A DNA stretch of 64,000 bases from Bacteroidales bacterium (GCA_045629225.1 JAZQQU010000095.1:8055-72054); one strand, 5' to 3'; shown: positions 19,644 through 64,000, counted from the stretch's first letter. The notes: generated from the sequence alone by a model not told the origin. Numbers and translations: made by a program.

Positions 19644-19675
19644 AGGCTGCGAAAAACGTTGGCTGTCGGCTTGGC

Positions 19676-20773: not shown

Positions 20774-20851
20774 GTTATGTGTGTTATTGGGGGGATAAGA
20801 AAAGGTGTGTGTAATAAAAAAGACTAGAGATCACTCGTCAGCTGATGACTA

Positions 20852-43800: not shown

Positions 43801-43843
43801 CATTCATCTCTCTGTAATATTTTTACCAATTATTTCTATATCT

Positions 43844-45397: not shown

Positions 45398-45454
45398 TAT
45401 CATTTTTGTCCTTCACACAACCAAAGGACAAATCAACAAAACAACAAAGCAACA

Positions 45455-47757: not shown

Positions 47758-47790
47758 CTCTCAACTCTTAACTCTTAACTTTTAACCAGT

Positions 47791-49140
47791 ATGAGCCGCC
47801 TTGGCCTAATCATACAGCGCGAATACCTACAGACAGTAGGCAAGAAGTCGTTCATCCTCACCACGGTGCTTGTGCCCGTGCTGAGCATCCTGTTGTGCGT
47901 TGTCATGCCCATCATGCTTGCTGGCGTGCATAGTGATGAGCTCAAGACCGTGGCCGTCATCGACCAGACTGCCGACCAGCAGTACGCCTCTCTGCTGCAC
48001 GACACTGACGACTATCATTTCGTCCCCCTTTCCAGTCCAGACTCTTTGTATTCGTCTTCGCACGCTGACCCACGTACCCTCTATACAACTGGCGATTACT
48101 ATGCCATTGTGCAAATACCCACAGATATCAACACGTCTTTGATTCTGAATGTATTTAGTGAATTTTCCGTCCCCAGTTCCTTGGGACGTGACGTAGAGCA
48201 TCTCCTACGTCCAGCCTTGCACAATACCCGCATTGCCAGCTACGAAATCGAAGGCCTGGAGCAGATCATAAAGGATTGCGACGTCAACCTTCAGATCAAC
48301 TCTGTGAAGTGGGGCGAAGATGGCGAGGAGAACATCTCCAGCTCAGAATTGAGTTCCATCCTGGGACTCGTCCTGGCCCTGGCCATCTATATGTTTGTCC
48401 TGATGTATGGCGCCATGATTATGAGTGGAGTGGTGGAGGAGAAGGCCAATCGCATCGTCGAGGTCATCATCTCTTCGTGCAAGCCTCTTGAACTGATGTT
48501 GGGCAAGATCATCGGTGTAGCACTCGTAGGCTTCACGCAGTTCGCTGTCTGGGCCGTACTCATTGGTGTGGGAGGGTCCATCCTGACCTCGCTCTTCGGC
48601 ATCGGTGCAACTCCCGATCCCTCGGCCCTACAAGCCTTGAACCCTGACACTCTGAACACAGTAGCTCTCAACTCGAGCAATTCAGCCATCTCCGAAGTGT
48701 ACCAGATGCTTCTTTCCATCGACTATACGCTCATCCTCACCTGCTTCATTCTCTATTTCATAGGTGGCTACCTGCTTTACGCCAGCCTTTTTGCCGCCTT
48801 TGGTTCGGCAGTCGATCAGCAGCAGGACACTTCGCAGTTCATGGGCCCCATCATGTTCTTCATGATTTTTGCCCTTTATGCCGGTATGTTCTCGATGGAG
48901 AATCCTGATGGGCCGCTGGCCTGGTGGTGCTCCATGATTCCCTTCACTGCCCCCATCACCATGATGGTGCGCTTGCCCTTCGATGTACCAGTATGGGAAC
49001 TCTCCCTTTCGCTCGGTGTGCTCTATGTCACAGCCTTCCTGACCCTCTGGCTGGCTGCTCGAATCTATCGCACGGGCATCCTGATGTATGGCAAAAAGTT
49101 TAGCTTCAAAGACATCATAAAGTGGATTAAACAGTCGTAA
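47791..49140 (+). CDS. ABC-2 family permease (NatB-like, large first extracytoplasmic loop)
   Basis: 449 aa. An N-terminal TM helix, a ~150-aa loop, then five or six TM helices, as in NatB-type ABC-2 permeases. Confidence 0.75.
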   Translation: MSRLGLIIQREYLQTVGKKSFILTTVLVPVLSILLCVVMPIMLAGVHSDELKTVAVIDQTADQQYASLLHDTDDYHFVPLSSPDSLYSSSHADPRTLYTTGDYYAIVQIPTDINTSLILNVFSEFSVPSSLGRDVEHLLRPALHNTRIASYEIEGLEQIIKDCDVNLQINSVKWGEDGEENISSSELSSILGLVLALAIYMFVLMYGAMIMSGVVEEKANRIVEVIISSCKPLELMLGKIIGVALVGFTQFAVWAVLIGVGGSILTSLFGIGATPDPSALQALNPDTLNTVALNSSNSAISEVYQMLLSIDYTLILTCFILYFIGGYLLYASLFAAFGSAVDQQQDTSQFMGPIMFFMIFALYAGMFSMENPDGPLAWWCSMIPFTAPITMMVRLPFDVPVWELSLSLGVLYVTAFLTLWLAARIYRTGILMYGKKFSFKDIIKWIKQS

Positions 49141-49172
49141 AATAGCCTGTTTTTCGAACAAACGATATTAAA

Positions 49173-49229
49173 AACACCCCAAAATGGCAAAAACTCATGC
49201 TGAAATTTTGGGGTGTTGATTTTTTTTTG
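49173..49229 (+). terminator. rho-independent terminator ending the 43.8-49.1 kb operon
   Basis: 13-bp stem aacaccccaaaat / attttggggtgtt followed by a 9-10 T run. Confidence 0.85.
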
Positions 49230-49237
49230 TATTTTTG
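49230..49237 (+). promoter_or_regulatory. -7 promoter box TATTTTTG for the glycan locus
   Basis: TAnnTTTG match immediately after the terminator T-run, ~115 nt upstream of wza ATG 49352. Confidence 0.45.
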
Positions 49238-49351
49238 CGCGGTATAAATTGTCTTTCAAACTTTCTAGCCCATCGAATCTCAGCCCTCGTGGTTGCCCTC
49301 CGTTGTGACAACCATGACCGTAGGTATGTCTTGACAAAATCATCATACAAT

Positions 49352-50203
49352 ATGAATAAAATTAGTCATTCCATGAATCCGAAGCTCTTGCACAAGGCAG
49401 CACGTGCCCTACAGCATACGTGTCTTGTAGCCCTACTTTTCCTGTCACTGTTCTCCTCTTGTTCCACACCCTACAACGTGGCCTATTTCCAGGATATGCC
49501 CTTGGAGAAACAGGTGCCCATCACTCCCCCTGTCAGCGTGCGCCTCATGCCTGCTGACAAGATCAGCATCCTGGTCAGCACACGCGATGCTTCTTTGTCC
49601 TCGCTATTCAGCCTCTACAGCAATTACAGCATTGGCAGCAACAACAGCAACTATGGTTACGCCAACCAGCGACCTTCGGAATACACTGTCGGTTCAGATG
49701 GCATGATCGATTTCCCAGTGCTGGGCCGTATCCCTGTGCAGGGCAAGACGCGTGAGGAGTTGCAATTGTTCATCAAGCAGCAACTCGTCGATCAGAATCT
49801 GGTCAAAGACCCTATTGTAACAGTCGAGTTTGTCAACCTCTATGTCACCATGGTGGGTGCTGCGGGTCATGTGGGTCGCATCGCCATCGACCGTGACCAG
49901 TTCACGCTGCTCGATGCCATCAGTCAGGCTGGCGACCTGGCCCTGACTGCTCAGCGCGAGAATGTGCGAGTAATTCGCGAAGTGGGTCCAGATCAGCTCA
50001 TTTCGCACGAGGTCAACCTGTGCTCGGCTGAGGAACTCTACAACTCGCCTGTCTATTACCTGCAGCAGAACGATGTCATCTACATCGAACCTAACAATAA
50101 GGTGAAGCGCACCACCACCGAATACGGCAGCAGCATGGTCAACTACACCTTCTGGGTAGGTCTCATCACCTCAGCACTCACCATCATCACCATCTTCAAG
50201 TAA
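49352..50203 (+). CDS. wza: polysaccharide export outer-membrane lipoprotein (Wza family)
   Basis: The start is trimmed to ATG 49352. Lipobox LFSSC. Poly_export pattern (YTVGSDGMIDFPVLGRIPVQGKTREELQ) plus an SLBB-like segment. Confidence 0.8.
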   Translation: MNKISHSMNPKLLHKAARALQHTCLVALLFLSLFSSCSTPYNVAYFQDMPLEKQVPITPPVSVRLMPADKISILVSTRDASLSSLFSLYSNYSIGSNNSNYGYANQRPSEYTVGSDGMIDFPVLGRIPVQGKTREELQLFIKQQLVDQNLVKDPIVTVEFVNLYVTMVGAAGHVGRIAIDRDQFTLLDAISQAGDLALTAQRENVRVIREVGPDQLISHEVNLCSAEELYNSPVYYLQQNDVIYIEPNNKVKRTTTEYGSSMVNYTFWVGLITSALTIITIFK

Positions 50204-50216
50204 ATTAGGTCAATCT

Positions 50217-52733
50217 ATGCTTCCATACAACGATCCCACATCTCCTGCCCAGCCATCGTCTGGCAATGCATCCCAGGTCGTAGTCAACCCTTCACTGCGC
50301 CCGCTCGACATTGTAGTCCTTCTGGTCTCCAACTGGCCCTGGATCATCCTCTGCCTGCTCCTTGGTTGGGGCGCGGCCGAGGCTTATCTGCTCTTCACAC
50401 CAGCCATCTACACCCGTGAGGCCTCCATACTCATTAAAGATCTCAACAAGGGCAATTCTCTTGGACAGGTAACCAGCGGTTTTGCCGACGCAGGTCTCTT
50501 CGCACAATCCACTGACCTCAACAATGAGATCTTCTTGCTCAAGTCTCCTTCGGTGATGTCCACCGTCATCAATCGCCTTGACCTTCAGACCGACTACGAG
50601 GTAGAGGGCCGTTTCCATAGTGCTCCCCTCTATGGCAGCAACCGCCCTATTCAGGTGCAGATGTTCGACGTCACCGACCAGCATGAGGCTGGTATGACCT
50701 TGGAACTGAAGAAGGATTCAACCTGCATCATCTATAATATGCAGCTCGATGGCCAGCAGTTCCCCGACAAGACTCTCTCTTTCAAGGTGGGCAAGACAGT
50801 CAAGACACCTATTGGACGCATCTGTGTCAATCCTTCGGGCTTCTACAACGAATATCCACGTCCCATCAGCATCCATCGAAGCAGCTTGCAGAGCACACTC
50901 TCGCATTATTCCGGAGAGCTGACTGTGGGATCGGGCGAGAACTCTACGATTATCAATCTCAGCATCAACGATTATGACAAACAGCGTGCTGAGGATATCC
51001 TTTACAACATCATTGCCATCTACAACGAACAGTGGATGGAGGACCGCAACCAGGTGTCCATCAGTACCAATCAATTTATCAACGAACGTCTGCAGGTCAT
51101 CGAGAACGAGTTGGGCGATGTTGAGGGCGATATCACAACCTACAAGTCTCAAAACCTCATCCTTGGTTCGGCAGAGGCCGTGGCTGGTACCTATATGGGG
51201 CAGGCCCAGAATGCTCGTACGCAGCAGATTGAGCTCAACAATCAGCTCTATATGGCCCGTTCCGTGCGCAGCTACCTCACCAACGAACAGAACCTCAACC
51301 AGCTTCTCCCAGCCAGTCAAGGCCTGAGTAGTGCAGGCATAACATCGCAAATCACCGAGTATAATACGATGCTCATGCGTCGCAACAACCTCGTCTCAGC
51401 CTCTTCGCTCCAGAATCCTTTGGTGCAGGATCTCGATATGCAGCTCGCTGGGTTGCGTCAGAATCTCATTGGCTCCATCGATGCACACATCGAGGAACTC
51501 AACCTTCAGGTTCGTTCGGCCCAGTCTATACAGGCAGTGGGCAACAGCAAGGTGGCCAGCGCTCCAACCCAGTCGCGTCATCTGCTTTCCTTCGAGCGTC
51601 AGCAGAAGGTTAAGGAGTCGCTCTACCTCTTCCTGCTTCAGAAGCGTGAGGAGAATGAGCTTTCGCAGGCATTTACTGCCTACAACAACCGTCTCGTCAC
51701 TCCACCTTCTGGCAAGAATGAGCCAACCTTCCCCAAGAAACTCAATGTCTATGCCATCTGCCTGCTCATTGGCCTGCTGCTGCCTATTGGCATCATCCTG
51801 CTCGATGAGTTAGCCAACACCTCTGTGCGAGGTCGCAAGGACCTCGATGTGCTCAACATCCCATTCCTGGGCGAAATACCGCTCAACAATCCAGACAATC
51901 GCTTCGTGCGCTTCTTCAACCGACTGAAGCGTCGATTCTCTATCCAGTCAGACAAGTCACGTCGTCGCAATGAAGACAAGACGTTGCACATCCTGGTTAA
52001 GGATGGCAAGACCGACATCATGAACGAGGCCTTCCGTGTTGTACGTACTAACATGGAGTTTATTGCAGGACGTAGTGATGAGGCTCGCACCATCATGCTC
52101 ACTTCTTTCAATCCAAACTCGGGCAAGACCTTCATCGTCAGCAACCTCGCCCTGACCCTTGCCATCAAGGACAAGCGCGTGCTCTGCATCGACCTCGACA
52201 TGCGTAAGCGATCTCTCTCAGCCCTCGTAGGCAAGCGTCTGCCTGGTCTCTCCAATTATCTGGGTGGCTATATCGATGACTTCCACGAGGTCATCAAGAC
52301 CAGTCCTATACACGACAAGCTCGATGTACTGCCAGCTGGCAAGATTCCTCCTAACCCCACTGAGTTGCTCTTCGAGGCACGTCTTGATGCCTTGCTTTCA
52401 CAGGTTCGCAAGGAATACGATTACGTCTTCCTCGACTGTCCTCCACTTGAGATCGTAGCCGATGCCTCCATCATTGCTCGTCTGGCCGACATGTCCATCT
52501 TTGTTGTTCGTGCCGAGGGTCTGCAGCGCACTGCCTTGCCCGACGTACAGAAGTACTACGATGACAAGCGTCTGCCCAAGATGACCATTCTGCTCAATGG
52601 CACCACCGACGCCTTCTCACGCTACGGTTACCACCGATATGGCAGCCGCTATGGCTACTCGTATGGCTATGGTCGCAGCTACTCGTATGGCTATGGCTAT
52701 AGTGACAGCGAACGTGACAGCAAGAAGGATTAA
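50217..52733 (+). CDS. wzc: chain-length determinant / BY-tyrosine kinase (Wzc family)
   Basis: 838 aa. A Wzz-type periplasmic domain lies between two TM helices. C-terminal kinase with Walker A TSFNPNSGKT, LCIDLDMRKR, FLDCPP and the Tyr-rich tail YGYHRYGSRYGYSYGYGRSYSYGYGY. Confidence 0.88.
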   Translation: MLPYNDPTSPAQPSSGNASQVVVNPSLRPLDIVVLLVSNWPWIILCLLLGWGAAEAYLLFTPAIYTREASILIKDLNKGNSLGQVTSGFADAGLFAQSTDLNNEIFLLKSPSVMSTVINRLDLQTDYEVEGRFHSAPLYGSNRPIQVQMFDVTDQHEAGMTLELKKDSTCIIYNMQLDGQQFPDKTLSFKVGKTVKTPIGRICVNPSGFYNEYPRPISIHRSSLQSTLSHYSGELTVGSGENSTIINLSINDYDKQRAEDILYNIIAIYNEQWMEDRNQVSISTNQFINERLQVIENELGDVEGDITTYKSQNLILGSAEAVAGTYMGQAQNARTQQIELNNQLYMARSVRSYLTNEQNLNQLLPASQGLSSAGITSQITEYNTMLMRRNNLVSASSLQNPLVQDLDMQLAGLRQNLIGSIDAHIEELNLQVRSAQSIQAVGNSKVASAPTQSRHLLSFERQQKVKESLYLFLLQKREENELSQAFTAYNNRLVTPPSGKNEPTFPKKLNVYAICLLIGLLLPIGIILLDELANTSVRGRKDLDVLNIPFLGEIPLNNPDNRFVRFFNRLKRRFSIQSDKSRRRNEDKTLHILVKDGKTDIMNEAFRVVRTNMEFIAGRSDEARTIMLTSFNPNSGKTFIVSNLALTLAIKDKRVLCIDLDMRKRSLSALVGKRLPGLSNYLGGYIDDFHEVIKTSPIHDKLDVLPAGKIPPNPTELLFEARLDALLSQVRKEYDYVFLDCPPLEIVADASIIARLADMSIFVVRAEGLQRTALPDVQKYYDDKRLPKMTILLNGTTDAFSRYGYHRYGSRYGYSYGYGRSYSYGYGYSDSERDSKKD

Positions 52734-52742
52734 ACCCGCATA

Positions 52743-54059
52743 ATGGCCCCAGCAATCGAATTTCAACAAGTAGGCAAAATGTACCGTCTCGGTCGAGTCG
52801 GTACTGGCACTTTGTCTCACGATCTAAACCGCTGGTGGCAGACCCGGATTTTGCGTCGAGAGGATCCCTACCTCAAGATTGGACAGACAAATGATCGCAC
52901 AAGCAAGGGCGAATCCGACTACGTCTGGGCTCTTCGCGATATCAGCTTCAAAGTCGAACAGGGCGAAGTCATAGGCATTATTGGCAAGAATGGTGCAGGC
53001 AAATCGACTCTGTTAAAGCTTCTCAGTAGTATCACCAGCCCCACTACAGGTCGCATCCTGTATCGAGGACGCATAGCATCCTTGCTCGAAGTCGGCACAG
53101 GTTTCCACCCCGAGATGACTGGTCGCGAGAACATCTATATGAATGGCGCCATCATGGGTATGACCAAGCGTGAGATAACTCGCAAGCTGGATGCTATTGT
53201 CGATTTCGCTGGCATCGATCGCTATCTCGATACTCCGGTCAAGCGCTATTCCTCAGGTATGACCGTCCGCCTCGGCTTCTCAGTTGCTGCTTTCCTCGAA
53301 CCAGAGATCCTCGTTGTTGACGAGGTCTTGGCAGTGGGTGATGCCGAATTCCAAAAGAAAGCTCTTGGCAAGATGCAAGATGTGTCAACAGGAGAAGGAC
53401 GAACAGTGCTGTTTGTCAGTCATAATATGGCTGCTGTGAAGATGTTATGTGCTCAAGGTTTAGTTCTTTCAGATGGCAGACTTGATTTTTCGGGAGATAT
53501 TTCTTCTTGTGTGGATCATTATCTCAAAAATGTCTCTATCTCAGACATAGTATCTGATGTTATTATCCATGACTGCCATCGTGAACATTTTCCATTCTTG
53601 ACTTATGCCATTTCTTTTCTTGAGGTCGAAATGCTGAATGCTGACCCTTCTGCGATTGCAACAGATGAGCCTTTAGATTTCAGAGTCCGTCTGAGACAGA
53701 ATCATACAACTGACAGATTTCAGCTTTGCGTCTTCTTTCAAGATTCAACTGATGTCCGAGTAGCATTTTATATGACTGAAGTACTAACTTGCCCAGCAGA
53801 TTCAGATGAGTTTTACCTAGTCATACATATTCCAGTTCACACTTTGCCCCAAGGGCGGTATAGTGTCCGTTTTGAAACCAATCTCCAGGATTTCAACCGG
53901 GGTAGTACACATTTCGATTTCGTGCATCATGTTTTGTCTTTCGAGGTGAAATATATTCATCAAGAGTTCAAGGATGAATTTTTATTTTGGCATCAGGAGT
54001 TCGGACAGACATTGCACATAGGTCAGGGTCAAATACATGCAAGTATTATTCCACAATGA
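52743..54059 (+). CDS. wzt: polysaccharide/O-antigen ABC exporter ATPase (Wzt/TagH type) with ~190-aa C-terminal extension
   Basis: 438 aa. Walker A GKNGAGKST, signature YSSGMTVRL, Walker B ILVVDE, H-loop FVSHN, then a beta-rich C-terminal domain. No adjacent Wzm-type permease. Confidence 0.8.
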   Translation: MAPAIEFQQVGKMYRLGRVGTGTLSHDLNRWWQTRILRREDPYLKIGQTNDRTSKGESDYVWALRDISFKVEQGEVIGIIGKNGAGKSTLLKLLSSITSPTTGRILYRGRIASLLEVGTGFHPEMTGRENIYMNGAIMGMTKREITRKLDAIVDFAGIDRYLDTPVKRYSSGMTVRLGFSVAAFLEPEILVVDEVLAVGDAEFQKKALGKMQDVSTGEGRTVLFVSHNMAAVKMLCAQGLVLSDGRLDFSGDISSCVDHYLKNVSISDIVSDVIIHDCHREHFPFLTYAISFLEVEMLNADPSAIATDEPLDFRVRLRQNHTTDRFQLCVFFQDSTDVRVAFYMTEVLTCPADSDEFYLVIHIPVHTLPQGRYSVRFETNLQDFNRGSTHFDFVHHVLSFEVKYIHQEFKDEFLFWHQEFGQTLHIGQGQIHASIIPQ

Positions 54060-55438
54060 GGGTATTGTATTATAACTGGACGCCTATTGAACAGAAACAC
54101 GCTGGAGGTGGAGTATCAGTCTATCTTTACAATCTTTTTCAGTATTTTTCCTCTCATCAGACTTCAATTCAACCCGTTTTCCTTTCTTCTGGTTATTATT
54201 ACGATAATAAACATCGACCGTACATCACCGAGCGAGAGTGTTACATGGGTATTGAAAACTATTGTTTGGTCAATTCGCCCATCATTGCTCCCCAGTTTAC
54301 CTCTTTTTCTGTCTATCGTCGGCATCTCGACGACAAAGTCATCATTCGTCTATTTCGTCAGTTCTTAATTGATCAAGGACCATTTGATGTTATCCATTTT
54401 CATTCGTTTGAAGGATTGACCACTAAAGTTCTTCAGTTGAAGTCAGAGTTCCAGAACACGCTTTTTGTTCACACGATTCATGATTATGGCTTATTTTGCC
54501 CTACGGTGCGTTTTTGGACTTATGATGCCCGTAATTGTGCCCTAACTCAGGGTCAGGTTTATTGCTATTCTTGTGTTCGTAAAGAATTAGTCCATCGTTA
54601 TACTGATTATCTGGTTGTTAAACGTATGCTTGATGGCCGTCCTCATCGCATGACCATTCTTGACCGTGTAGCCCGAATAATAGAGATTCTACATACTCGT
54701 CTTTCCTATAAGATACACGATTATTTCGAAGATGTTCGTCGTCAGAATGTCAAGATGGTCAATTCTTTTTCCGATGGAGAGCTTTGCGTCTCTCATCGCG
54801 TCATGGATATTGCCACCTCACATGGTATCAATTCTTCCAAGTGTATTGTTTCTTATATCGGAACTCTAGCTGCTTCTTCCTATCTTGGCCAATGCCGAAC
54901 GGCTGTTAATTCGCCAGTTCTCACTATCCTTTTTATGGGATCTGCAGCACCTGAGAAGGGATTGGATACATTGCTGAGTGCTCTTGAATGTATTGATTCA
55001 TCGCGATGCACCATTGCACTGAAGGTCGCTGCTGGTATAGATGATGTTACAGTCTTGCGTCGCTTGGATGTGCTTGGTCATCATTTGGCTGGTGTAATAC
55101 ATTATAATGGCTATACACATCAGGATTTCGGCCAGATTATGCAGGATGTCAATCTAGGAGTTGTCCCTCCGCTCTGGGAAGACAATTTGCCACAGGTAGC
55201 CATTGAGATGATTGCTCATGGCATTCCTATCATAACAGGCATCCATGGTGGTGCTCAGGAGTTGAATACACATCCCTGTTTCCTATTCACTGATTCTTCT
55301 GATCTACAAGGCAAGATTGAGCAGATTTGCAACCATCGTAATCTGTTGAATGATTACTGGTCGTATGTCACTCCTTTGATGACCATGGAACTGCATGTTA
55401 ATCAGTTGCAACAGATCTATAGTCATGAACTTCGATAA
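54056..55438 (+). CDS. glycosyltransferase (GT4/GT1-like)
   Basis: ATG 54056 overlaps the wzt stop (ATGA). MRVLYYNWTPIEQKHAGGGVSVYLYNL... The C-terminal half resembles the GT-B retaining fold (PPLWEDNLPQVAIEMIAHGIPII). Confidence 0.6.
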   Translation: MRVLYYNWTPIEQKHAGGGVSVYLYNLFQYFSSHQTSIQPVFLSSGYYYDNKHRPYITERECYMGIENYCLVNSPIIAPQFTSFSVYRRHLDDKVIIRLFRQFLIDQGPFDVIHFHSFEGLTTKVLQLKSEFQNTLFVHTIHDYGLFCPTVRFWTYDARNCALTQGQVYCYSCVRKELVHRYTDYLVVKRMLDGRPHRMTILDRVARIIEILHTRLSYKIHDYFEDVRRQNVKMVNSFSDGELCVSHRVMDIATSHGINSSKCIVSYIGTLAASSYLGQCRTAVNSPVLTILFMGSAAPEKGLDTLLSALECIDSSRCTIALKVAAGIDDVTVLRRLDVLGHHLAGVIHYNGYTHQDFGQIMQDVNLGVVPPLWEDNLPQVAIEMIAHGIPIITGIHGGAQELNTHPCFLFTDSSDLQGKIEQICNHRNLLNDYWSYVTPLMTMELHVNQLQQIYSHELR

Positions 55439-56477
55439 GCTGCTCACCATCGTCATCCCTGCCTACAACATGCATGATTACCTTCGTCGTTGTCTAGATT
55501 CCATTTGTATAGAGTCTGTAATGAACGATGTGCAAGTCATAGTGGTCAATGATGGTTCTACAGACGATACCTTACAGATAATGCATGAATACGAGCATCG
55601 TTACCCTCACTATATTCAGGTAATAGATAAGGAGAATGGCAATTATGGCTCCTGTATGAATGCCGCTTTACCATTGGTCGAAGGTAAGTATTTTAGGACA
55701 CTCGATGCAGATGACTGGTATGATTCAGATGCATTAGTGCGTTTTATTAAAGATTTGTGGAACTCAGATGCTGATCTGGTATTCTCTGCAATGACTATTC
55801 ATCGCGATTTGCTATCCTCAGTCCTCTCTCATAGTTATTTTGGTCCATCTATTCCAGCAGGCATAGATCTGGATATTGACAGCGTTGATTGGGAATCCTC
55901 TGATATGCCAGAACGAACGATGGGACCTCAGTTCTTAACCTATCGAACTGAAGTATTGCAAAATGTCGGAATGAGATGGACAGAAAACATTTTTTATACT
56001 GATACCGAATATATGGCCAAACCTCTTCGCCTTGTGCATAAGGTAAGATTTTTCAACACATCCATCTATCAGTATCAACAAGGTTTGACTGGCCAGTCTA
56101 TGAATTCTGAGGTTTTCAGTCGTAATATCCGTCATCATCTTCTCGTTTGCCAAAGCATTCTTCTCGATTTCTTGTCCCATCTTCCTTATACTAAAGGTCA
56201 ACATACTTTGTCCATCATGCGTCTCAAGGTGTGGATCGCTGGGGCTTATCGCAGTTTGTATCGTAATGGGTTCACTCATTATCGTCTACTTTCTTCTATC
56301 GACGATATGGTTCAGCATATTCCAGAACTAGATGCTGTCGCAAAGGCTCAGAATGAGTTTAATGGACACTATTATGTCCTCGCTTTTCGACATAATCGTC
56401 TTTGGCTCTTATTCATTTGGCTTGAGTTCCTTTTAAAGTCTAACAGTTATTTGCGTAAGCTTTTGAAAAAGGCTTGA
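55425..56477 (+). CDS. GT2-family glycosyltransferase
   Basis: ATG 55425 lies 14 nt inside the upstream gene. LTIVIPAYNMHDYLRRCLDSI...VIVVNDGSTDDT...LDADD (DXD). Confidence 0.8.
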   Translation: MNFDKLLTIVIPAYNMHDYLRRCLDSICIESVMNDVQVIVVNDGSTDDTLQIMHEYEHRYPHYIQVIDKENGNYGSCMNAALPLVEGKYFRTLDADDWYDSDALVRFIKDLWNSDADLVFSAMTIHRDLLSSVLSHSYFGPSIPAGIDLDIDSVDWESSDMPERTMGPQFLTYRTEVLQNVGMRWTENIFYTDTEYMAKPLRLVHKVRFFNTSIYQYQQGLTGQSMNSEVFSRNIRHHLLVCQSILLDFLSHLPYTKGQHTLSIMRLKVWIAGAYRSLYRNGFTHYRLLSSIDDMVQHIPELDAVAKAQNEFNGHYYVLAFRHNRLWLLFIWLEFLLKSNSYLRKLLKKA

Positions 56478-56625
56478 CCATACATTTCCCAGGAAAGATA
56501 AACCCGACATCTTTCGAGGCGAAGGTATCTAACACCTGACTATGTCATCCAGAGCCGAGTAGCACATTTAGGAAGTTTGCATTCTCATCCTGAGGTGGCT
56601 CCCACTGGCTAGTTTGTTCCAGATT

Positions 56626-57417
56626 ATGATCCCCAAAATCATCCACTATACTTGGTTCAGCTCCGACCCATTTCCCGATGCGGTGAGGAAATGTCTAGAC
56701 TCATGGCATCAGCACATGCCTGATTGGCAGTACATGCTGTGGGATGCAGAACGCATCAAGGACATCGAGTCTGTTTGGCTCAAAGAATGCCTGCAAGAGC
56801 ACAAATGGGCATTCGCTGCTGACTATGTGCGTCTCTATGCCTTGAGCCGGTATGGTGGCATCTACCTCGATACAGATTGTTTGGTCTATCATTCGCTCGA
56901 ATCTTTTTTGCACCATCAGGCATTCATAGGTCGAGAGTGGTATGTACATATCGATGGCGGCACCACGTGGCATTATCTCTCGTCTCATTGTTTTGGCGCA
57001 GTGTCAGGCCATCCTTTCGTTTTGCGTTGTCTGGAGTATTACAAAGGACGTCATTTCGTCAAGTCGGCAGATGGTTCTTTGCCCGACAATCTACGCCTCG
57101 ACCAAACTCTTCTCCCGCTGATTCAGTGCCAGTTGGCACAGCAAATGTATGGCTATGACCCCAGTCCATGTTGTTCAGGCGTCCAGAACCTTACATGTCT
57201 CGATTCTGTGTTAGTAGTCTATCCTTATCCATATTTCGATCCATACGACATCCAGAAGCAAACAATAGTCCGCCATCTTTCGTTAGGCAGCTGGTATGGC
57301 AAGGTGGCCAAGGTCTCCGCCAGAGCTTCTTATTTGCAACGCATCAAGTATCGCCTTGACTTATGGTTCAGACACTTCATGTGGCGTCATGGCTATATTG
57401 TGGAGCATAAGCGTTAA
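56626..57417 (+). CDS. GT32-like glycosyltransferase (DXD sugar-binding region)
   Basis: ATG 56626 (the track start 56614 is a TTG). IPKIIHYTWFS... and YGGIYLDTD are typical of the Gly_transf_sug/OCH1-like family. Confidence 0.7.
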   Translation: MIPKIIHYTWFSSDPFPDAVRKCLDSWHQHMPDWQYMLWDAERIKDIESVWLKECLQEHKWAFAADYVRLYALSRYGGIYLDTDCLVYHSLESFLHHQAFIGREWYVHIDGGTTWHYLSSHCFGAVSGHPFVLRCLEYYKGRHFVKSADGSLPDNLRLDQTLLPLIQCQLAQQMYGYDPSPCCSGVQNLTCLDSVLVVYPYPYFDPYDIQKQTIVRHLSLGSWYGKVAKVSARASYLQRIKYRLDLWFRHFMWRHGYIVEHKR

Positions 57418-57423
57418 TCAATT

Positions 57424-58302
57424 ATGTTAGGCACCCTCTTCTTCACCTGTTTCGATGCGGTCTATCGTCATCTTTGTTTTATGCCACGCATCATGCCTCA
57501 TGCTGAGACAGTCGAGAAGATTGTCTGCCAACACCTGTCATTGGCGCGTTTTGGTGATGGCGAACTGAAGGTGATGCTGGGTGCTGACATCAATTTCCAG
57601 TCTGCTTCACCCTTGTTGTCCCGAAGGCTCAAAGAGGTCTTCCTAAGTCAAGAGTCTCATCTCCTTATTGGTATTCCAGATATTTTTGAGCATCTGGAAC
57701 GATATAATGCTACCGAACAGGAGTTTTGGCGATATCATCTTCGTTTCCGTCGTTGGCATTGGCATCGATATATCCGTCGCACACAATGGTATGCCAGCAC
57801 TTTCCTATCACGTTTCTATAGCATGGAGTACGATCTTCAGTTATCCAATTCTCGCTTGCGGATGCTCCGGCAATTATGGGATGGCCGCAATGTACTTTTC
57901 GTAGAGGGCATGGACACTAAGTTGGGAGTAGGCAATGATCTGTTTGAGAATGCAACCTCCATCCGCCGCATCCTCTGTCCTGCTAAAGATGCCTTCTCTT
58001 CGTACGATGCTATCCTGAAGGCTACACTCAATGAGGCTCAATCTGATGATCTCATTATTCTTGCCTTAGGACCTACAGCTACTGTTCTGGCTGCAGATCT
58101 ATGTCGATCCGGTTTTCAGGCACTTGATCTTGGCCACATAGATATTGAATACGAATGGTACTTGCAGCATGCTACAGCCAAGGTAGGCATAAAAGGCAAG
58201 TTTAGCAATGAAGCTTTTTTGACCCACATGGCCACGGCCGAGGTAGAAGGTGAATTGTCGGGAGATGCCTATACTAATCAGATAATTGCTGTCATAGTAT
58301 AG
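57424..58302 (+). CDS. GT-D fold glycosyltransferase (DUF1792 / SP_1767 family)
   Basis: 292 aa. Hallmark motifs SLARFGDGELKVMLG, VEGMDTKLGVGNDLF, ALGPTATVLAADL and LDLGHIDIEYEWY. Confidence 0.8.
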   Translation: MLGTLFFTCFDAVYRHLCFMPRIMPHAETVEKIVCQHLSLARFGDGELKVMLGADINFQSASPLLSRRLKEVFLSQESHLLIGIPDIFEHLERYNATEQEFWRYHLRFRRWHWHRYIRRTQWYASTFLSRFYSMEYDLQLSNSRLRMLRQLWDGRNVLFVEGMDTKLGVGNDLFENATSIRRILCPAKDAFSSYDAILKATLNEAQSDDLIILALGPTATVLAADLCRSGFQALDLGHIDIEYEWYLQHATAKVGIKGKFSNEAFLTHMATAEVEGELSGDAYTNQIIAVIV

Positions 58303-58304
58303 TC

Positions 58305-59276
58305 ATGGTTTGTGTATCAGTTATTGTACCAGTTCATAATGTAGAGCCATACATCGAGCGCTGTGTTCGGAGTCTGATGGGGCAAACGCTCGAATCGCTT
58401 GAGTTCATCTTTGTCGATGATCATGGCACAGATGACTCTGTTGGCATTCTGACGAAAGTCCTTAACGATTATCCTCAAAAACAAGCTCGGGTAAGCATTA
58501 TTCACAATGAGGAAAACCTCGGTCTGTCACTTTCTCGAAAAAAGGGCTTCGAAGCATCTCATGGCCAGTATCTGATTGCTTGTGATGCAGACGATTGGGT
58601 CGAACCAGATGCCTACCAAAAGTTATACGAGCAGGCTCAAAAAAGTAAGGCTGACATCGTTGTCTGTGACTATATTAAGGAATTGCCTCACGCCTCTCAA
58701 CCTTGGCCTTTCAATCTTGATTCAGATGCTAAGAGATGCCTTCAGCAGATTCATGACAATCATCGATTCTCTTGGACTATCTGGAATCAGCTTATCCGTC
58801 GCGATATTGCACTAACAGCTATTCAAGAAGTCTATCCTACAACCTATGCCGAAGACATCTATACCATGATTCATGCCTATTGGTTGTCCACTATTGTAGC
58901 ACAGGTCAAAGAACCGCTTTATCATTACAACCAGAGTAATGCACGGTCAGTGATGTCTCGTGGCGTATGGCCGAAGGATATCTGGCATGCGCAACAACAG
59001 AATATTGAAGCTGTCATCACTCTCCTGAATCCATCTGAAAATCCTGAGTATACCCTCACTTGCCAGTGGCTGAAGTTCAAGATCAAGGAGAAACTTGTTT
59101 CTTCATTCCCAGATCTCCATACTTATTACATTACCTACAAAGAGAGTCATCTCGACATCTTACATTACGAATACATCCCACTCTCTGTCCGTCGTAAACT
59201 ACGCATCATTTATAGTTGCTACTTCACTTTCTGGCTTTATCACCAACTCCAGAAATTTCGTTACCTTTGCTCATGA
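58305..59276 (+). CDS. GT2-family glycosyltransferase
   Basis: VSVIVPVHNVEPYIERCVRSLMGQT...FIFVDDHGTDDS...CDADD. Confidence 0.8.
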   Translation: MVCVSVIVPVHNVEPYIERCVRSLMGQTLESLEFIFVDDHGTDDSVGILTKVLNDYPQKQARVSIIHNEENLGLSLSRKKGFEASHGQYLIACDADDWVEPDAYQKLYEQAQKSKADIVVCDYIKELPHASQPWPFNLDSDAKRCLQQIHDNHRFSWTIWNQLIRRDIALTAIQEVYPTTYAEDIYTMIHAYWLSTIVAQVKEPLYHYNQSNARSVMSRGVWPKDIWHAQQQNIEAVITLLNPSENPEYTLTCQWLKFKIKEKLVSSFPDLHTYYITYKESHLDILHYEYIPLSVRRKLRIIYSCYFTFWLYHQLQKFRYLCS

Positions 59277-60340
59277 ACTCCCTTGAAAGTTCCTTGCCCG
59301 TCATTGACTTTGTCCTTCCCATTGTCGATCCTTCCGATCCTGAGTGGCAGGCTCAATATCGCCAGTATTGCAGTGGGGGAGAGGGCGATGACCCTGTTCG
59401 CTTTCGCGACTGGGGATGGCTTCGTTATTGGTTACGAAGTGTAGCTGCTAATGCCCCTTGGGTACATCGCATCTATATCCTTTCTTGCAATCCAAAGCCT
59501 GATTGGGTCAATGCCGAGGGTGAACGTCTGGTGTGGCTACATCACCGCGATTTCATTCCTGCAGGATTCTTGCCTACATTCAATGTCAACACCATCGAAC
59601 TTCATCTGCATCGTATCCCGGGGTTATCAGAGCATTTTGTCTATTTCAATGATGATACACTCCTCAATGCTCCGATAGAACCTACCTTTTATTTCCGCGA
59701 TGGCCTACCATGTGACGCTACTCTCGAAGGTCTCTTCTTCGTCCCTCACTACGAGCAGGGCAATTGGGGCACGCAATTAATGGAGTTTTGTGATGTAGGT
59801 CTCCTTAAGAAACACTTTCTCCGCCAAGATGTTGTGAAAGGTAATTGGTATCGATGGTATGGCAGTTATCTCCCTTGGCAGTCGCGTCTCAAAGCTTTCT
59901 TACTTTCATTTCAGTCGCAGTTCTTTAATTTCAATACACCTCATCACGAGCGTCCTTTGCTCAAGAGTATATTCGAAGAAGTTTGGCAGGCTGAGCCGGA
60001 GTATCTTCGACGTAGTTGCACCCGTTTTCGTGAACCCACCAATGCTAATGTTTATCTGATGCGTTACTGGCATCTGGCAAGTAACCGTTTTTTCCCAGAA
60101 CGCAGTCGCTTGCATTGCAAATATTACGAGATAATGCCTGAGACACTCGACATGATCTGTCATGATCTGGCCACTGGCCAAGTGCCCAGCCTTTGCCTCA
60201 ATGATGTCTCAACCTGCAGTGACGAATTCTTCTGCCAGGCCAAGGAACGGCTCAATGCAGTCCTGCTCGAAAGATATCCTTTGGCATGTGAATATGAATA
60301 TTCTCTTCCTCATCCCAAGTCTCCATGCCCGAGGTGCTGA
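59273..60340 (+). CDS. Stealth-family hexose-1-phosphate transferase (capsule phosphotransferase type)
   Basis: ATG 59273 overlaps the upstream stop (ATGA). Stealth CR1-like IDFVLPIVDPSDPEW, and CR2-like LRYWLRSVAANAPWVHRIYILSCNPKPDW...FNVNTIELHLHRIPGLSEHFVYFNDD. Confidence 0.75.
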   Translation: MNSLESSLPVIDFVLPIVDPSDPEWQAQYRQYCSGGEGDDPVRFRDWGWLRYWLRSVAANAPWVHRIYILSCNPKPDWVNAEGERLVWLHHRDFIPAGFLPTFNVNTIELHLHRIPGLSEHFVYFNDDTLLNAPIEPTFYFRDGLPCDATLEGLFFVPHYEQGNWGTQLMEFCDVGLLKKHFLRQDVVKGNWYRWYGSYLPWQSRLKAFLLSFQSQFFNFNTPHHERPLLKSIFEEVWQAEPEYLRRSCTRFREPTNANVYLMRYWHLASNRFFPERSRLHCKYYEIMPETLDMICHDLATGQVPSLCLNDVSTCSDEFFCQAKERLNAVLLERYPLACEYEYSLPHPKSPCPRC

Positions 60341-61391
60341 GCGTGTGTTGGTTAGCTTAGTCCGAAGCCTTGACCTAAGCCACTATCAGATCACTGTTCA
60401 GACTTTGTTTGATGTCGGACCATTGCGATACGAGTTGCCAAGTGACGTCGAATATCGCAGAGGGCTTCCGTTCATTTTTCGAGGCAATGTACAGTTGATG
60501 AAGCTGTTCAGTCCTGCGTGGCTGTATCGCATCATCGTCGGCCGACGTTATGACGTGGTGGTCGCCTTTCTCGAAGGGGCAGTCACGCGCATCATTTCTG
60601 GGTGTCCCTATCCTGACACTCGCAGGTTAGCGTGGGTTCACATTGAACAGCACGATCTCCCTACCTTCGCTCATTGTTATCGCTCAGCTTCCGAGGCTAT
60701 CCGCTGCTATCAGAGGTTCGACCAGGTCATAGCCGTATCGCAGTCGGTCAAGCAGGGATTTGACGCCATGTCCGGGTTTTCAGCCCGCGTCATCCACAAT
60801 CTTATCGACGTCGATCGCATCCTCCAGCTTTCTAGAGAGCAGGTCACTGACTTTACCTTGTCGGCCTGTCCCAACCTCATCAGTGTGGGGTCGCTCACCC
60901 ATCAGAAGGGATATGACCGACTGATACGTGTGCATTGCCAACTGCTTCAGAGGGGCCTTCTCCATCATGTCTATGTGATAGGTGAGGGGGAATCTGAGGC
61001 TTCGCTCCGTAACTTGATCCGAGAGCTTGATGTGGACGAAACCTTCCATCTGCTTGGCTATCGTTCCAATCCATACCCATATCTTACCCAGGCTGATCTC
61101 TATGTCTGTTCCTCCCGACAGGAGGGCATGAGCACAGCAGTCACCGAAGCTCTTATCTTGGGACTGCCCGTCATCAGTACGCGCTGCGGTGGGGCAGAGG
61201 AACTGTTAGGAGCAAGCGGAGAATATGGCGTAGTCACTTCGAATGACGAACAGGGTCTCTTCTCGGGTTTGTCCCACCTCCTTGGCGATACCCAGTGCCT
61301 TCTGGACCTCAGGTCCAAAGCGAGCCTACGTTCCGATGTTTTCTCCCCTAAACCCGTCCTACAGTCTTTGTCTGGTCTATTCGATCCATGA
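60294..61391 (+). CDS. GT4-family glycosyltransferase
   Basis: ATG 60294 lies 47 nt inside the Stealth gene. MNILFLIPSLHARGAERVLVSL... C-terminal SSRQEGMSTAVTEALILGLPVIST (EX7E). Confidence 0.8.
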   Translation: MNILFLIPSLHARGAERVLVSLVRSLDLSHYQITVQTLFDVGPLRYELPSDVEYRRGLPFIFRGNVQLMKLFSPAWLYRIIVGRRYDVVVAFLEGAVTRIISGCPYPDTRRLAWVHIEQHDLPTFAHCYRSASEAIRCYQRFDQVIAVSQSVKQGFDAMSGFSARVIHNLIDVDRILQLSREQVTDFTLSACPNLISVGSLTHQKGYDRLIRVHCQLLQRGLLHHVYVIGEGESEASLRNLIRELDVDETFHLLGYRSNPYPYLTQADLYVCSSRQEGMSTAVTEALILGLPVISTRCGGAEELLGASGEYGVVTSNDEQGLFSGLSHLLGDTQCLLDLRSKASLRSDVFSPKPVLQSLSGLFDP

Positions 61392-62887
61392 TCGTTTTCT
61401 TTTTCTTATTGAATATAGTTTCAAGTTGCCTGGCCTTGGCAAAATATAGCGATTTTTTCGCTATAGTTGTGCTTATCGCTTTGGCAGCTTTGATAGCTGT
61501 AATTGAGAACTATTTCTATAAGATTCTGGTTCATAAGTGGCCACGTCGCTTATTTTTATCGACAGTGGTCGTGGCTCATTCGCTGATCCTGTTGGTCGAT
61601 TCGTTTCTCTTTTGGAATTTCCGATTGTTTCTCGACATTGAAGTCTATGATATCATAGCTGCTACCTCTCGATCCGAAGGGATAGAATTTTTCAAGACTT
61701 ACCTTTCTCTCATTAAGTTTTTATTTTGGTTAGGTTTTGTTTCTAGTTTAGTCATTCTTCTTTTTCGTAGTGCAGTCAGTCTTGTTGGGCAGAAGTGGTT
61801 AACTCGTAGTATCCGTTTGTTTTCGGTCTTTGGAGTCACCTCCATATTTTTCAGTGCCTATGGCTATACAACTGGACGAGGCGGATATTGCGTGCCTCAA
61901 ATGTCTGGTGTGACACGTGTCTTTTATTGTTTCCAAGTCTTACGTCATAATGTTCAAGAGATTGAACTCCTATATCATACCAGCCAACACACTCAAGCCT
62001 CAATCATGCAGGATACCATAGCTAACGTGGTCGTTGTCATTGGCGAATCCTATAGTTGCTCTCATTGTCAGCTTTATGGATATGGCTTGCCAAATACGCC
62101 GAACATGGATGTGCGTCAACAGATGGGTGAATTAGTAGTGTTTCGCCATGTTACATCACCTTTTGATGCTACCAACCAGGCTATGAGAGCTTTGTTTTCT
62201 TTGGACTATCGCTGCTTTTCGGAGGTTCCGATTTTTCCCGTTTGCTTTCATAACGCAGGCTATCGCACACTTATTATGGACAACGAATACTTTCGTGGCG
62301 CAGGTATCAATTTGATGAGCAATGAGATACTATCAGACTACTCGTATGACTATCGCAATTTGTCCTCATATCAATACGATGGAGAGATGATTACTGATAC
62401 ACCGCACTTCGATGCTCCATCACTGTATGTATTTCACCTCAAAGGTCAGCATTATACCTATGCAGAGCGATATCCATCTTCCTTCACTCGCTTCAAGGCG
62501 AATGATTATGATTCCTCCCTCCATACTTTAGCACAACGACAGATTCTGGCACATTATGATAATGCAACCCTTTACAATGATGCAGTCATTGAGCAGATTA
62601 TTTCCAGGTTTCAAGATACAGATTGCTGTCTTTTTTATGTCTCAGATCATGGGGAAGAGATTTTCGATTGTGGTGAGTATATGGGACACGGCACTTCACA
62701 GAGTTCGCCTGACAGTCGTTATCAGTTAACAGTACCGTTGATTTTATGGTCTTCTGATCTTTTCCGCGTGAAGCATGCTGATACATGGAACCGCTTGATT
62801 TCTCAAACAACCGATACTTTACAATCCTCAATTCTGCCAACTTTGTTACTGGAAACTGCAGGAATATCATATAACATCAAGTATTGA
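61388..62887 (+). CDS. membrane sulfatase-superfamily transferase (phosphoethanolamine/phosphoglycerol transferase type)
   Basis: ATGA overlap with the upstream gene. About five N-terminal TM helices. Catalytic-domain motifs VVVIGESYSCSHCQLYGY, HLKGQHYTYAERYP and YVSDHGEE. Confidence 0.7.
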   Translation: MIVFFFLLNIVSSCLALAKYSDFFAIVVLIALAALIAVIENYFYKILVHKWPRRLFLSTVVVAHSLILLVDSFLFWNFRLFLDIEVYDIIAATSRSEGIEFFKTYLSLIKFLFWLGFVSSLVILLFRSAVSLVGQKWLTRSIRLFSVFGVTSIFFSAYGYTTGRGGYCVPQMSGVTRVFYCFQVLRHNVQEIELLYHTSQHTQASIMQDTIANVVVVIGESYSCSHCQLYGYGLPNTPNMDVRQQMGELVVFRHVTSPFDATNQAMRALFSLDYRCFSEVPIFPVCFHNAGYRTLIMDNEYFRGAGINLMSNEILSDYSYDYRNLSSYQYDGEMITDTPHFDAPSLYVFHLKGQHYTYAERYPSSFTRFKANDYDSSLHTLAQRQILAHYDNATLYNDAVIEQIISRFQDTDCCLFYVSDHGEEIFDCGEYMGHGTSQSSPDSRYQLTVPLILWSSDLFRVKHADTWNRLISQTTDTLQSSILPTLLLETAGISYNIKY

Positions 62888-62947
62888 GACAACTATTATT
62901 CTTTCCTTGTCCCAATTCGCGTAAAAAAGAATAAAAATAACACTCTA

Positions 62948-62992
62948 AATGCGATTGAATGCACTATTTCGTGCTTCAATCGCATTTTTTTT
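62948..62992 (+). terminator. rho-independent terminator ending the glycan locus
   Basis: aatgcgattgaa(t)gcac-tatttc-gtgcttcaatcgcatt followed by an 8 T run. Confidence 0.8.
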
Positions 62993-63024
62993 CCCTTTTC
63001 GTACCATCGTATTGAAAAAAACAT

Positions 63025-63251: not shown

Positions 63252-64000
63252 ATGCATCTCATGAAGAAATCTTTCCTCCTCTTTGCCATGCTCGCCTGCT
63301 TCTGCAGCTCAGCCATGGCCTTCGACGTAGTAGTTGGCACCGGCATCAACGGTGATGATTCCTCTCCCTACGGTGTCGTAAGCAAGTACTCCACCACCCA
63401 GTCCATCTACCTCGCCAGCGAGATAGGGGCTAAAGGCACTATCACCGACATCGCCTACTTTGTGACCAACGGCTCACCACTCGCCGACCAGTACATAACG
63501 GTCTATATGGGCAACACCGACAAGGACTCGTTCAGTTCCACCGATGACGCCCTCTCATTCTTTGAGATGTCGCCGGTCTTCAGTGGCAGAATTACCCTCG
63601 GCAGTGCTTGTGGCAGTTGGGACAACATCACGCTCAACACCGCCTTCGAGTACGATAGCACCAAGAACTTGGCTGTGATGGTGTGCCGATCAGCAACGAA
63701 AACGTCCCCAACACTCCAGTTCCAATACACTCAGGCCACTGGTAAAGTCTTGAGCCGAGAGAATGATAGAGACTCAGATTACAGCACAGGCTGGAATGTC
63801 AGCGACTTCGATGCTTATAATCGCCGTGCCAACATCCGCCTCACCTTCGAGAATCCAGCTCTCAACATCAATGGCGACCTCAACCATGACGGCGTGGTCA
63901 ATGTGCTCGACCTTGAGATGCTAGCTGATGTGATCCTCGAGAAGACCAAGCCCGAGGTGGTGCAGGTCAGCGACGGAGGACTTCACTTCGGAGCCTTGGT
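63252..64000 (+). CDS. secreted protein with dockerin-like calcium-binding repeat (partial, continues beyond the right edge)
   Basis: Absent from the ORF track because it has no stop in-window. My translation from ATG 63252 is MHLMKKSFLLFAMLACFCSSAMAFDVVVGTGINGDD...NINGDLNHDGVVNVLDLEMLADVILEK..., open to 64000. It has a signal peptide and a D-x-N-x-D-G-x-V-N-x-x-D motif. Confidence 0.6.
   Translation, partial: MHLMKKSFLLFAMLACFCSSAMAFDVVVGTGINGDDSSPYGVVSKYSTTQSIYLASEIGAKGTITDIAYFVTNGSPLADQYITVYMGNTDKDSFSSTDDALSFFEMSPVFSGRITLGSACGSWDNITLNTAFEYDSTKNLAVMVCRSATKTSPTLQFQYTQATGKVLSRENDRDSDYSTGWNVSDFDAYNRRANIRLTFENPALNINGDLNHDGVVNVLDLEMLADVILEKTKPEVVQVSDGGLHFGAL

Follow-up and report, generated by a model that had tools for sequence, protein, structure and literature searches.

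Gene Organization of the Locus

We analyzed a stretch of 64,000 nt from a Bacteroidales bacterium (GCA_045629225.1; JAZQQU010000095.1:8055–72054), hereafter called the window. The NCBI contig to which it belongs is 75,209 nt long, and 11.2 kb of this contig lie outside the window. Near the right end of the window there is a glycan locus in which the genes of the outer export pair Wza/Wzc are followed by wzt, encoding the ATPase of a transporter of the ATP-binding cassette (ABC) type, and by a block of glycosyltransferase (GT) genes; wzm, encoding the permease partner of Wzt, is not found among them. In what follows, the loci of relatives bear L-numbers and homologous proteins P-numbers, and domain assignments were made with Pfam unless another source is named.

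All genes of the locus are located on the plus strand. The left boundary is formed by the terminator of the upstream ABC-2 transporter operon (49173–49228, plus strand; 12-bp G+C-rich stem followed by a T-run; fold of 49160–49240, −22.8 kcal/mol). The first gene, wza (49352–50203), encodes an outer-membrane polysaccharide export (OPX) lipoprotein of 283 aa (Poly_export, E 4e-17; SLBB_2), and its ATG start at 49352 agrees with the gene call in conspecific contigs. The next gene, wzc (50217–52733), encodes a polysaccharide co-polymerase (PCP) of the PCP-2a type with a C-terminal tyrosine autokinase (Wzz, GNVR, AAA_31; NCBIfam tyrosine-protein kinase Wzc, E 1.5e-55). This protein has two transmembrane helices (residues 32–50 and 511–529), the Walker A, A′ and B motifs of bacterial tyrosine (BY) kinases, readable in its translation, and a Tyr-rich tail (...YGYSYGYGRSYSYGYGY...). 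The wzc stop is separated by a spacer of 9 nt (52734–52742), which by junction comparison is the slot of wzm in L016 and L087, from the start of wzt (52743–54059), whose product is an ABC transporter ATPase of the O-antigen/teichoic-acid export class (ABC_tran, E 1e-22).

Downstream of wzt we revealed genes for a GT4-family glycosyltransferase of 460 aa (54056–55438; Glyco_trans_1_4, Glycos_transf_1, Glyco_transf_4), which by orthologue comparison accompanies wzt also in L087, L001 and L088, and for a GT2-family glycosyltransferase of 350 aa (55425–56477; Glycos_transf_2, E 5e-23), with its start as in the L087 orthologue. An intergenic region (56478–56625) follows, which blastn against L089 and L090 identified as the right breakpoint of a strain-variable cassette (52730–56625). 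Beyond it are located genes for a GT32-family glycosyltransferase of 263 aa with a DXD sugar-binding region (56626–57417; Gly_transf_sug, E 7e-16; Caps_synth), a GT-D fold glycosyltransferase of 292 aa (57424–58302; GT-D, E 1.8e-81), a second GT2-family glycosyltransferase of 323 aa (58305–59276; Glycos_transf_2, E 3e-32), a Stealth-family protein of 355 aa (59273–60340; Stealth_CR2, E 1.6e-36; Stealth_CR1), a second GT4-family glycosyltransferase of 365 aa (60294–61391; Glyco_trans_1_4, E 7e-25; Glyco_transf_4; gene size as in L089) and, finally, a sulfatase-fold membrane protein of the EptC/CptA/EptA family (61388–62887; Sulfatase, E 3e-30). A terminator (62947–62994, plus strand; stem AATGCGATTGAA...TTCAATCGCATT and T8; fold of 62890–63000, −28.4 kcal/mol) is the right boundary of the transcription unit in the window. 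Start and stop codons overlap as ATGA at 54056, 59273 and 61388, and longer overlaps of 14 and 47 nt are present at 55425 and 60294, respectively. An earlier reading of this sequence (hereafter the original prediction) had given the same gene order and domains, which are borne out by the ORF listing and the Pfam scans; the junction overlaps that it reported proved exact on a sequence check, and both of its terminators do consist of a hairpin and a T-run.

The product of the last gene, described in the original prediction as a sulfatase-type transferase, does contain a Sulfatase domain (residues 213–486), preceded by four to five N-terminal transmembrane helices (residues 1–126). Its best match among PDB structures was EptC (5zzu, E 1e-25), with further matches to EptA and MCR-1, and the NCBIfam CptA model matched it with an E-value of 1.4e-35, below the curated cut-off. 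More exactly, therefore, the gene can be assigned from its sequence, at the family level, to phosphoethanolamine transferases of the EptC/CptA/EptA type. The multi-helix N-terminal anchor followed by a sulfatase-fold domain is the layout of the EptA, EptC, CptA and MCR transferases. In characterized phosphoethanolamine transferases the sulfatase-fold domain is periplasmic. Since the Ept family acts at the periplasmic face, the substrate of the last gene product is expected to cross the inner membrane. The family assignment of the Stealth protein suggests a hexose-1-phosphate transferase and hence that the glycan contains a phosphodiester linkage. Phosphotransferases of the Stealth type occur in ABC-dependent capsule systems, for example in Neisseria meningitidis serogroups A and X.

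None of the six frames of the window encodes a Wzm, as judged by tblastn with six Wzm queries and by screening of all frames with a hidden Markov model (HMM) of 55 Bacteroidota Wzm. Neither a Wzx, Wzy or Bac_transf domain nor a Polysacc_synt or Wzy-type Pfam match was revealed in any window ORF scanned; no Capsule_synth (KpsC/KpsS) domain was present in any window protein according to Pfam, and no Wzb was found in the window. A terminating methyltransferase/kinase similar to WbdD was not identified at the locus. Transmembrane prediction found no polytopic protein among the glycosyltransferases of the locus, in agreement with the view of the original prediction that none of them is a Wzy or Wzx in disguise. 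Within the 64-kb window its statement that Wzm, Wzx, Wzy and a priming transferase are absent thus holds by Pfam, tblastn and HMM searches, and so does the absence of sugar-nucleotide genes. A locus without a priming transferase and sugar-nucleotide genes is, however, normal for ABC-dependent loci. For example, wecA sits outside the enterobacterial O-antigen clusters. In the best reading of the data, genes located elsewhere provide the priming phosphoglycosyltransferase and the supply of nucleotide sugars. Among the relatives, L088 contains Bac_transf and glf genes immediately upstream of wzt.

Probable Position of the wzm Gene

Relatives of the locus were collected using the Wzt protein of the window. 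The closest one is L087, whose Wzt is 83% identical to that of the window. The two loci are collinear over a stretch that begins with the ABC-2 permease, comprises wza, wzc, wzt, GT4, GT2, GT32, GT-D, GT2 and Stealth and ends with the second GT4. The nucleotide identity is mostly 74–80% and drops to 67% in the second GT4. L087 differs, however, in having genes for a 279-aa Wzm (ABC2_membrane) and for a DUF6922/AbiEii toxin–antitoxin pair between wzc and wzt. In L016, whose Wzc gave a phmmer score of 1506 bits against the window Wzc, the wza, wzc, wzm and wzt genes are contiguous.

A protein search seeded by the L087 Wzm revealed the protein P0150 (280 aa, MQSHIITPRRGLLDIDIRGLWNYRDLYMMYIK...), which is full length and 86% identical to the L087 Wzm. 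It is recorded on one NCBI contig of 75,209 bp. Five proteins of the window that we checked in the same way (Wzt, Wzc, GT-D, the last gene product and SHMT) are each recorded on one NCBI contig of 75,209 bp as well. The matching of contigs by size was verified on a retrievable case: the Wzt P0005 and the Wzm P0220, both recorded with 32,142 bp, are indeed located on the same Logan contig. A further Wzm, 97.5% identical to P0150, was found on a short Logan contig (P0263). Since P0150 is recorded on the 75,209-bp contig and is not encoded in the 64,000-nt window (tblastn; Wzm HMM in six frames), its gene is most probably located within the other 11.2 kb. According to this database record, wzm is thus very likely on the same contig, at most 11.2 kb beyond one of the window ends; its absence is then a window-edge effect, and Wzt is most probably not the orphan that the original prediction had supposed. 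The proposal that the missing functions are supplied in trans was right for wzm in substance, but not in the sense of a distant unlinked locus. A conventional wzm immediately outside the window, which the original prediction had named as evidence against itself, is essentially what the record points to.

In two other relatives, we found wzm at the far end of the transferase block. L126 encodes a Wzm (P0262) that is 92% identical to P0150, and its gene order is wzc-wzt-GT32-sulfatase-GT32-GT2-GT2-GT4-acyltransferase-HTH_18-wzm. L127, which shares one contig with L001, encodes the Wzm P0220, 88% identical to P0150; its genes from wzt to Stealth are ordered as in the window, and beyond them come three further genes, then HTH_18 and wzm. 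The wzm start is located there ~10.6 kb past the wzt end, and the same distance in the window corresponds to ~64.7 kb, just beyond the window end. Two layouts are therefore present in this clade: wzm is located either between wzc and wzt or at the end of a variable transferase block headed by wzt. By analogy with L126 and L127, the wzm of the window is most likely located downstream, closing the variable block. Neither end of the window matched the regions flanking wzm in L126 and L127 in a tblastx comparison, so the side on which wzm lies is suggested by this analogy alone. Among the members listed (15 of 21 for one cluster), no cluster-mate of the wzm neighbors of L126 and L127 (HTH_18, a 268-aa protein, AAA_15, DUF3226 and others) was recorded on a 75,209-bp contig.

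The 268-aa protein is encoded just 3′ of wzm (L126:10871–11677) and belongs to a 21-member cluster at 90% identity, nearly all members of which are on contigs of 1–3 kb. The surroundings of wzm apparently form a conserved stretch at which metagenome assemblies break up. Both L089 and L090 stop at one and the same point, ~2.3 kb past the part compared.

Toxin–antitoxin-like pairs were revealed between wzm and wzt in several relatives, namely DUF6922/AbiEii in L087 (5315–6183) and DUF4325/PIN in L002–L004 (L002:7324–8203). Insertions and rearrangement are thus tolerated at the wzm-wzt junction. We also considered, and rejected, a loss of wzm from the window through misassembly, because the junction is a clean one (stop, 9 nt, start) and because L126 independently has wzc followed directly by wzt.

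Structure of the Wzt Protein

The solved structures nearest to Wzt are those of Aquifex aeolicus Wzt (E 1e-58), TarH, TagH and the mycobacterial Wzt/RfbE; the PDB entries matched for Wzt are 6amx/8dku. Its translation contains the motifs GKNGAGKST (Walker A), YSSGM (signature) and ILVVDE (Walker B), which assigns the ATPase, as far as sequence goes, to the Wzt/TagH/TarH subclass with intact motifs. The C-terminal domain (residues ~262–438, the last 177 residues) matched Pfam Wzt_C with an E-value of 3e-4, below the curated cut-off; five of nine homologues matched it too. A profile search of this domain against PDB sequences gave no match. Its AlphaFold2 model is a beta sandwich (pLDDT 78, pTM 0.78), for which Foldseek found as best matches 2R5O, 6O14, 8DKU and 5HNO (TM-score ~0.53), i.e., the carbohydrate-binding domains (CBDs) of Wzt from Escherichia coli O9a, A. 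aeolicus and O12, with a sequence identity to the solved CBDs of only 8–12%. The predicted fold indicates that the protein has a Wzt-type carbohydrate-binding C-terminal domain.

Wzt is also the most conserved protein of the locus in comparison with L087 (82% aa identity, dN/dS 0.04). Its distances to outgroups equal those of relatives keeping an adjacent wzm, i.e., there is no rate acceleration, and at otherwise invariant positions it has a single unique substitution, E159D. Decay of wzt was therefore rejected: the genes are intact, dN/dS is low and unique substitutions are not in excess.

Strain Variation of the Locus

On both flanks of a replaced segment, two Logan contigs of the same species (L089 and L090) share 94% nucleotide identity with the window. 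In place of positions 52730–56625 (wzt-GT4-GT2) they carry an unrelated GT2-GT-D-GT2 cassette (L089:6549–9359; L090:3950–6760). According to blastn, homology ends at 52729 and resumes at 56626, and the replacement cassette is ~35% identical to its paralogues in the locus. In the best reading, what lies between wzc and GT32 is a cassette that varies among strains through exchange by recombination.

All ten genes shared with L089 are intact, and their dN/dS values vary from 0.02 to 0.21, which indicates purifying selection and hence that the locus is being maintained. In particular, Wza has 97.5% aa identity to the L089 copy with dN/dS of 0.04, and dN/dS of Wzc against L089 is 0.02.

Association of Wza/Wzc With Wzm/Wzt in Bacteroidota

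To describe the architecture of such loci in the phylum, we analyzed 80 Wzt-seeded loci of species-representative genomes with 10-kb flanks (best Wzt match 60% identical), and Wzc-seeded metagenome loci whose relatives were at most 50% identical were used for architecture counts. A wzm gene was present in the fetched stretch of 53 of the 80 Wzt-seeded loci. In 29 of them it was adjacent to wzt, and in 12 it lay at a distance of 0.1–1 kb. In a further 10 loci it was located upstream by more than 1 kb, and in two downstream. A wzc gene was located within 10 kb in 15 of the 80 loci, and 14 of these 15 also contained wzm. The 15 loci belong to Bacteroidales (Prevotellaceae, Rikenellaceae), Flavobacteriales (Flavobacterium aquatile, Algibacter, Salegentibacter, Thalassobellus) and Cytophagales (Runella). 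Similarly, wzm or wzt was found in seven of the 15 Wzc-seeded metagenome loci with at least 5 kb downstream.

Contiguous wza-wzc-wzm-wzt genes recur in Bacteroidales, Flavobacteriales and Cytophagales, and most loci with wza, wzc and wzm/wzt have no polytopic protein of Wzx or Wzy size within 10 kb. The premise of the original prediction that Wza/Wzc imply Wzx/Wzy is accordingly not valid in Bacteroidota, and the combination of Wza/Wzc with Wzt that it had singled out is recurrent in the phylum.

In the remaining 27 of the 80 Wzt-seeded loci wzm was not detected within the fetched stretch, a number that includes cut contigs. In some of these loci wzt comes first after a housekeeping gene (RecQ, MatE or M48 peptidase) and no wzm was detected within 10 kb; such cases were observed in L035 (5978–11287), L043 (451–4032), L015 (8614–11263) and L030 (9181–11290). 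It should be noted that a wzm at the end of the block can fall outside a 10-kb flank, as happened with L001 until L127, from the same contig, was seen.

Other Genes of the Window

Directly upstream of wza, at 46906–49140, the window encodes an ABC ATPase similar to DrrA/GldA and a permease (ABC2_membrane_3) whose first loop is large. The permease gene is located directly upstream of wza also in L016, L087 and L089 and in no more distant wza-wzc locus, which is probably plain synteny.

A second group of genes related to envelope glycans was found at 17598–23732. It consists of genes for a PorZ-like protein of the type IX secretion system (17598–19643, minus strand), a GT4 (19676–20773, minus strand), a radical-SAM/SPASM enzyme (20852–22078, minus strand) and a Wzi-like outer-membrane capsule-assembly protein (22146–23732, plus strand). 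The region 43568–46882 encodes a 609-aa membrane polyferredoxin-like protein (Fer4_5, multiple 4Fe-4S domains) and then an aldo-keto reductase that bears a twin-arginine-like signal and, at its C-terminus, a 4Fe-4S dicluster domain. Positions 1–520 (minus strand) encode the N-terminal part of a multi-pass membrane protein similar to OPT-family oligopeptide transporters, an assignment made by eye on the translation. Elsewhere, according to Pfam, the window contains Bacteroidota housekeeping genes, including those for PorZ, TamB, Rho, FtsH, RecQ, DnaJ and SHMT.

After the terminator of the locus, the gene of a secreted protein, which has a signal peptide and a dockerin-like repeat, begins at 63252 and runs off the window at 64000. 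Its counterpart in L089 encodes 543 aa and is annotated as Big_2. A protein homologue search with the 249-aa start of the secreted protein (63252–63998) gave no match, despite the DNA being 94% identical in L089.

Discussion

The data presented here make it quite probable that the locus is the larger part of a Bacteroidales ABC-transporter-dependent surface-glycan locus placed beside the Wza/Wzc outer export pair, with its wzm on the same contig. In this reading it is an ordinary, intact surface-polysaccharide cluster of a gut bacterium, and no unusual export route is needed; the one considered in the original prediction finds no support, as an intact Wzm is recorded on what is very likely the same contig. 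The following sequence of events can be proposed. The transferases (GT4, GT2, GT32, GT-D, GT2, Stealth and GT4), being soluble or peripheral, would assemble the complete polymer on the cytoplasmic side, attached to a lipid carrier, and the Stealth enzyme would probably add a sugar-1-phosphate linkage. The CBD, found here as a domain and a fold, may recognize the finished chain as it does in the Wzt of E. coli O9a, in Klebsiella pneumoniae O12 and in A. aeolicus WzmWzt, and Wzt would power export via the Wzm channel. In the periplasm, the EptC/CptA-like enzyme would add phosphoethanolamine. Wza and Wzc would then take the glycan across the outer membrane, as suggested by the synteny conserved in three orders.

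Several observations weigh against this reading. The coupling of Wza/Wzc to the ABC transporter is suggested by synteny alone, and the G+C content changes at this very place, from 52% in wza and wzc to 40–48% from wzt onward. A terminator-like hairpin is present after wzc in L089 and L090, and no wzt was found in these two contigs between wzc and the last locus gene, which the proposed model leaves unexplained. The wzm gene is known from a protein record and might instead be located upstream, at a distance of over 52 kb from wzt. On the downstream side, the last locus gene is followed by the strong terminator at 62947–62994 and by the unrelated secreted-protein gene, so that wzm probably belongs to a different transcription unit. 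Finally, neither a priming transferase nor a ligase was identified.

Part of these observations fits another explanation, in which wza and wzc are only neighbors of the other genes. Wzm/Wzt would then flip an O-antigen-like chain, a WaaL-type ligase from elsewhere would join it to the lipopolysaccharide (LPS) core and Lpt would carry the product outward, while Wza/Wzc would serve another, Wzy-dependent polysaccharide encoded elsewhere. Besides the G+C break between wzc and wzt and the hairpin after wzc in L089, this explanation agrees with the last gene, whose closest characterized relatives (CptA, EptC and EptA) modify the LPS core or lipid A. To our knowledge, CBD-bearing Wzt proteins have so far been characterized only in O-antigen systems, and 2R5O, 5HNO and 8DKU all come from such systems. 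In Porphyromonas gingivalis the wza-wzc genes are separate from the glycan loci (PMC3684754). We nevertheless consider the explanation rather unlikely, given the contiguous same-strand wza-wzc-wzm-wzt genes in three Bacteroidota orders, most of these loci having no Wzx- or Wzy-sized polytopic protein within 10 kb, and given the mere 9 nt between wzc and wzt in the window.

A true orphan Wzt that follows an unusual route with a non-Wzm partner, e.g., the ABC-2 permease at 47791–49140, would account for the lack of an encoded Wzm in the 64-kb window, for the ABC-2 pair directly upstream of wza in the window, L016, L087 and L089, and for the 27 of 80 genome loci with no wzm in the fetched stretch. 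However, an intact Wzm is recorded on what is very likely the same contig, and the permease has its own ATPase and terminator. It is located beside wza only in the three closest-relative loci, two of which have a normal wzm, and for this reason we rejected it as a Wzm surrogate. Some of the loci with no wzm are cut contigs, and others may hide the gene past the 10-kb flank. An orphan Wzt is thus highly improbable. Hardly any credence can be given to a decaying locus, in which the move or loss of wzm from its slot would have uncoupled export and left wzt as a relic that has already gone from L089 and L090. The slot does hold wzm in L016 and L087, and wzt is lacking from the conspecific contigs between wzc and the last locus gene; but all the genes are intact with dN/dS of 0.02–0.21, Wzt is the best conserved protein of the locus in comparison with L087 and has no excess of unique substitutions, and the Wzm product recorded for the contig is full length.

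In comparison with known systems, an ABC-transporter-dependent locus headed by Wza/Wzc combines features of several of them. It resembles the Wzm/Wzt O-antigen transporters of E. coli O9a, K. pneumoniae/Raoultella terrigena O12 and A. aeolicus in the nucleotide-binding domain, which is nearest to A. aeolicus Wzt, in the CBD fold, in having all transferases cytoplasmic and no Wzy/Wzx, and in an ABC2_membrane Wzm of ~280 aa as the probable partner (P0150). In contrast to these stand-alone systems with WaaL-dependent ligation, it is headed by an OPX protein and a tyrosine-kinase PCP-2a, its wzm is not adjacent to wzt, no WbdD-like terminator enzyme was identified at the locus, and its CBD is only 8–12% identical to the solved ones. 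With the group 2 capsule system of E. coli (kps) it shares ABC-dependent export with an OPX/PCP pair. In L126 and L127, and probably also here, the variable transferase block has conserved export genes on either side, as kps regions 1 and 3 flank the serotype-specific region 2; a Stealth-type phosphotransferase is a further likeness to ABC-dependent capsules. Unlike in kps, the PCP is a PCP-2a with a kinase domain rather than a KpsE-type PCP-3, the transporter belongs to the CBD-bearing Wzm/Wzt class rather than to KpsMT, there is no KpsC/KpsS domain, and wzt is inside the variable block. Wza, with Poly_export and SLBB, and Wzc, with Wzz, GNVR, two transmembrane helices, BY-kinase motifs and a Tyr-rich tail, are like those of the Wzx/Wzy-dependent group 1 capsule (Wza-Wzb-Wzc); unlike in that system, no Wzx, Wzy or Wzb is present in the window, and the inner-membrane step belongs to an ABC transporter.

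The component families are thus known, but a tyrosine-kinase Wzc paired with Wzm/Wzt departs from the textbook scheme, and the combination of a PCP-2a kinase and an OPX protein with a CBD-bearing Wzm/Wzt, with no KpsE, KpsC or KpsS, is non-standard and outside the group 1 and group 2 paradigms. It is conceivable, though we hold this only tentatively, that Bacteroidota possess a distinct, widespread and undescribed export pathway in which Wzc (PCP-2a) and Wza work with a CBD-bearing O-antigen-type Wzm/Wzt. In this clade the layout would be kps-like, with conserved wza-wzc on one side and a conserved wzm on the other; wzt would be placed in the variable block because its CBD must match the glycan cap, and conspecific strains with no wzt would be natural specificity-swap or export-off variants. 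We found no description of wza-wzc-wzm-wzt loci in Bacteroidota in the literature, which is weak evidence of novelty, since subscription journals were largely uncovered.

For the locus of the window itself, no new export mechanism is required. In the phylum, wzm and wzt are often several kb apart, so that capsule and O-antigen finders based on adjacency mis-score such loci as incomplete. The variable cassette, together with the strains with no wzt, provides a natural system for the co-variation of Wzt CBD specificity and glycan structure. In gut and environmental Bacteroidota, Wza/Wzc are commonly wired to Wzm/Wzt, which contradicts the rule, used by many annotation schemes, that Wza/Wzc imply Wzx/Wzy.

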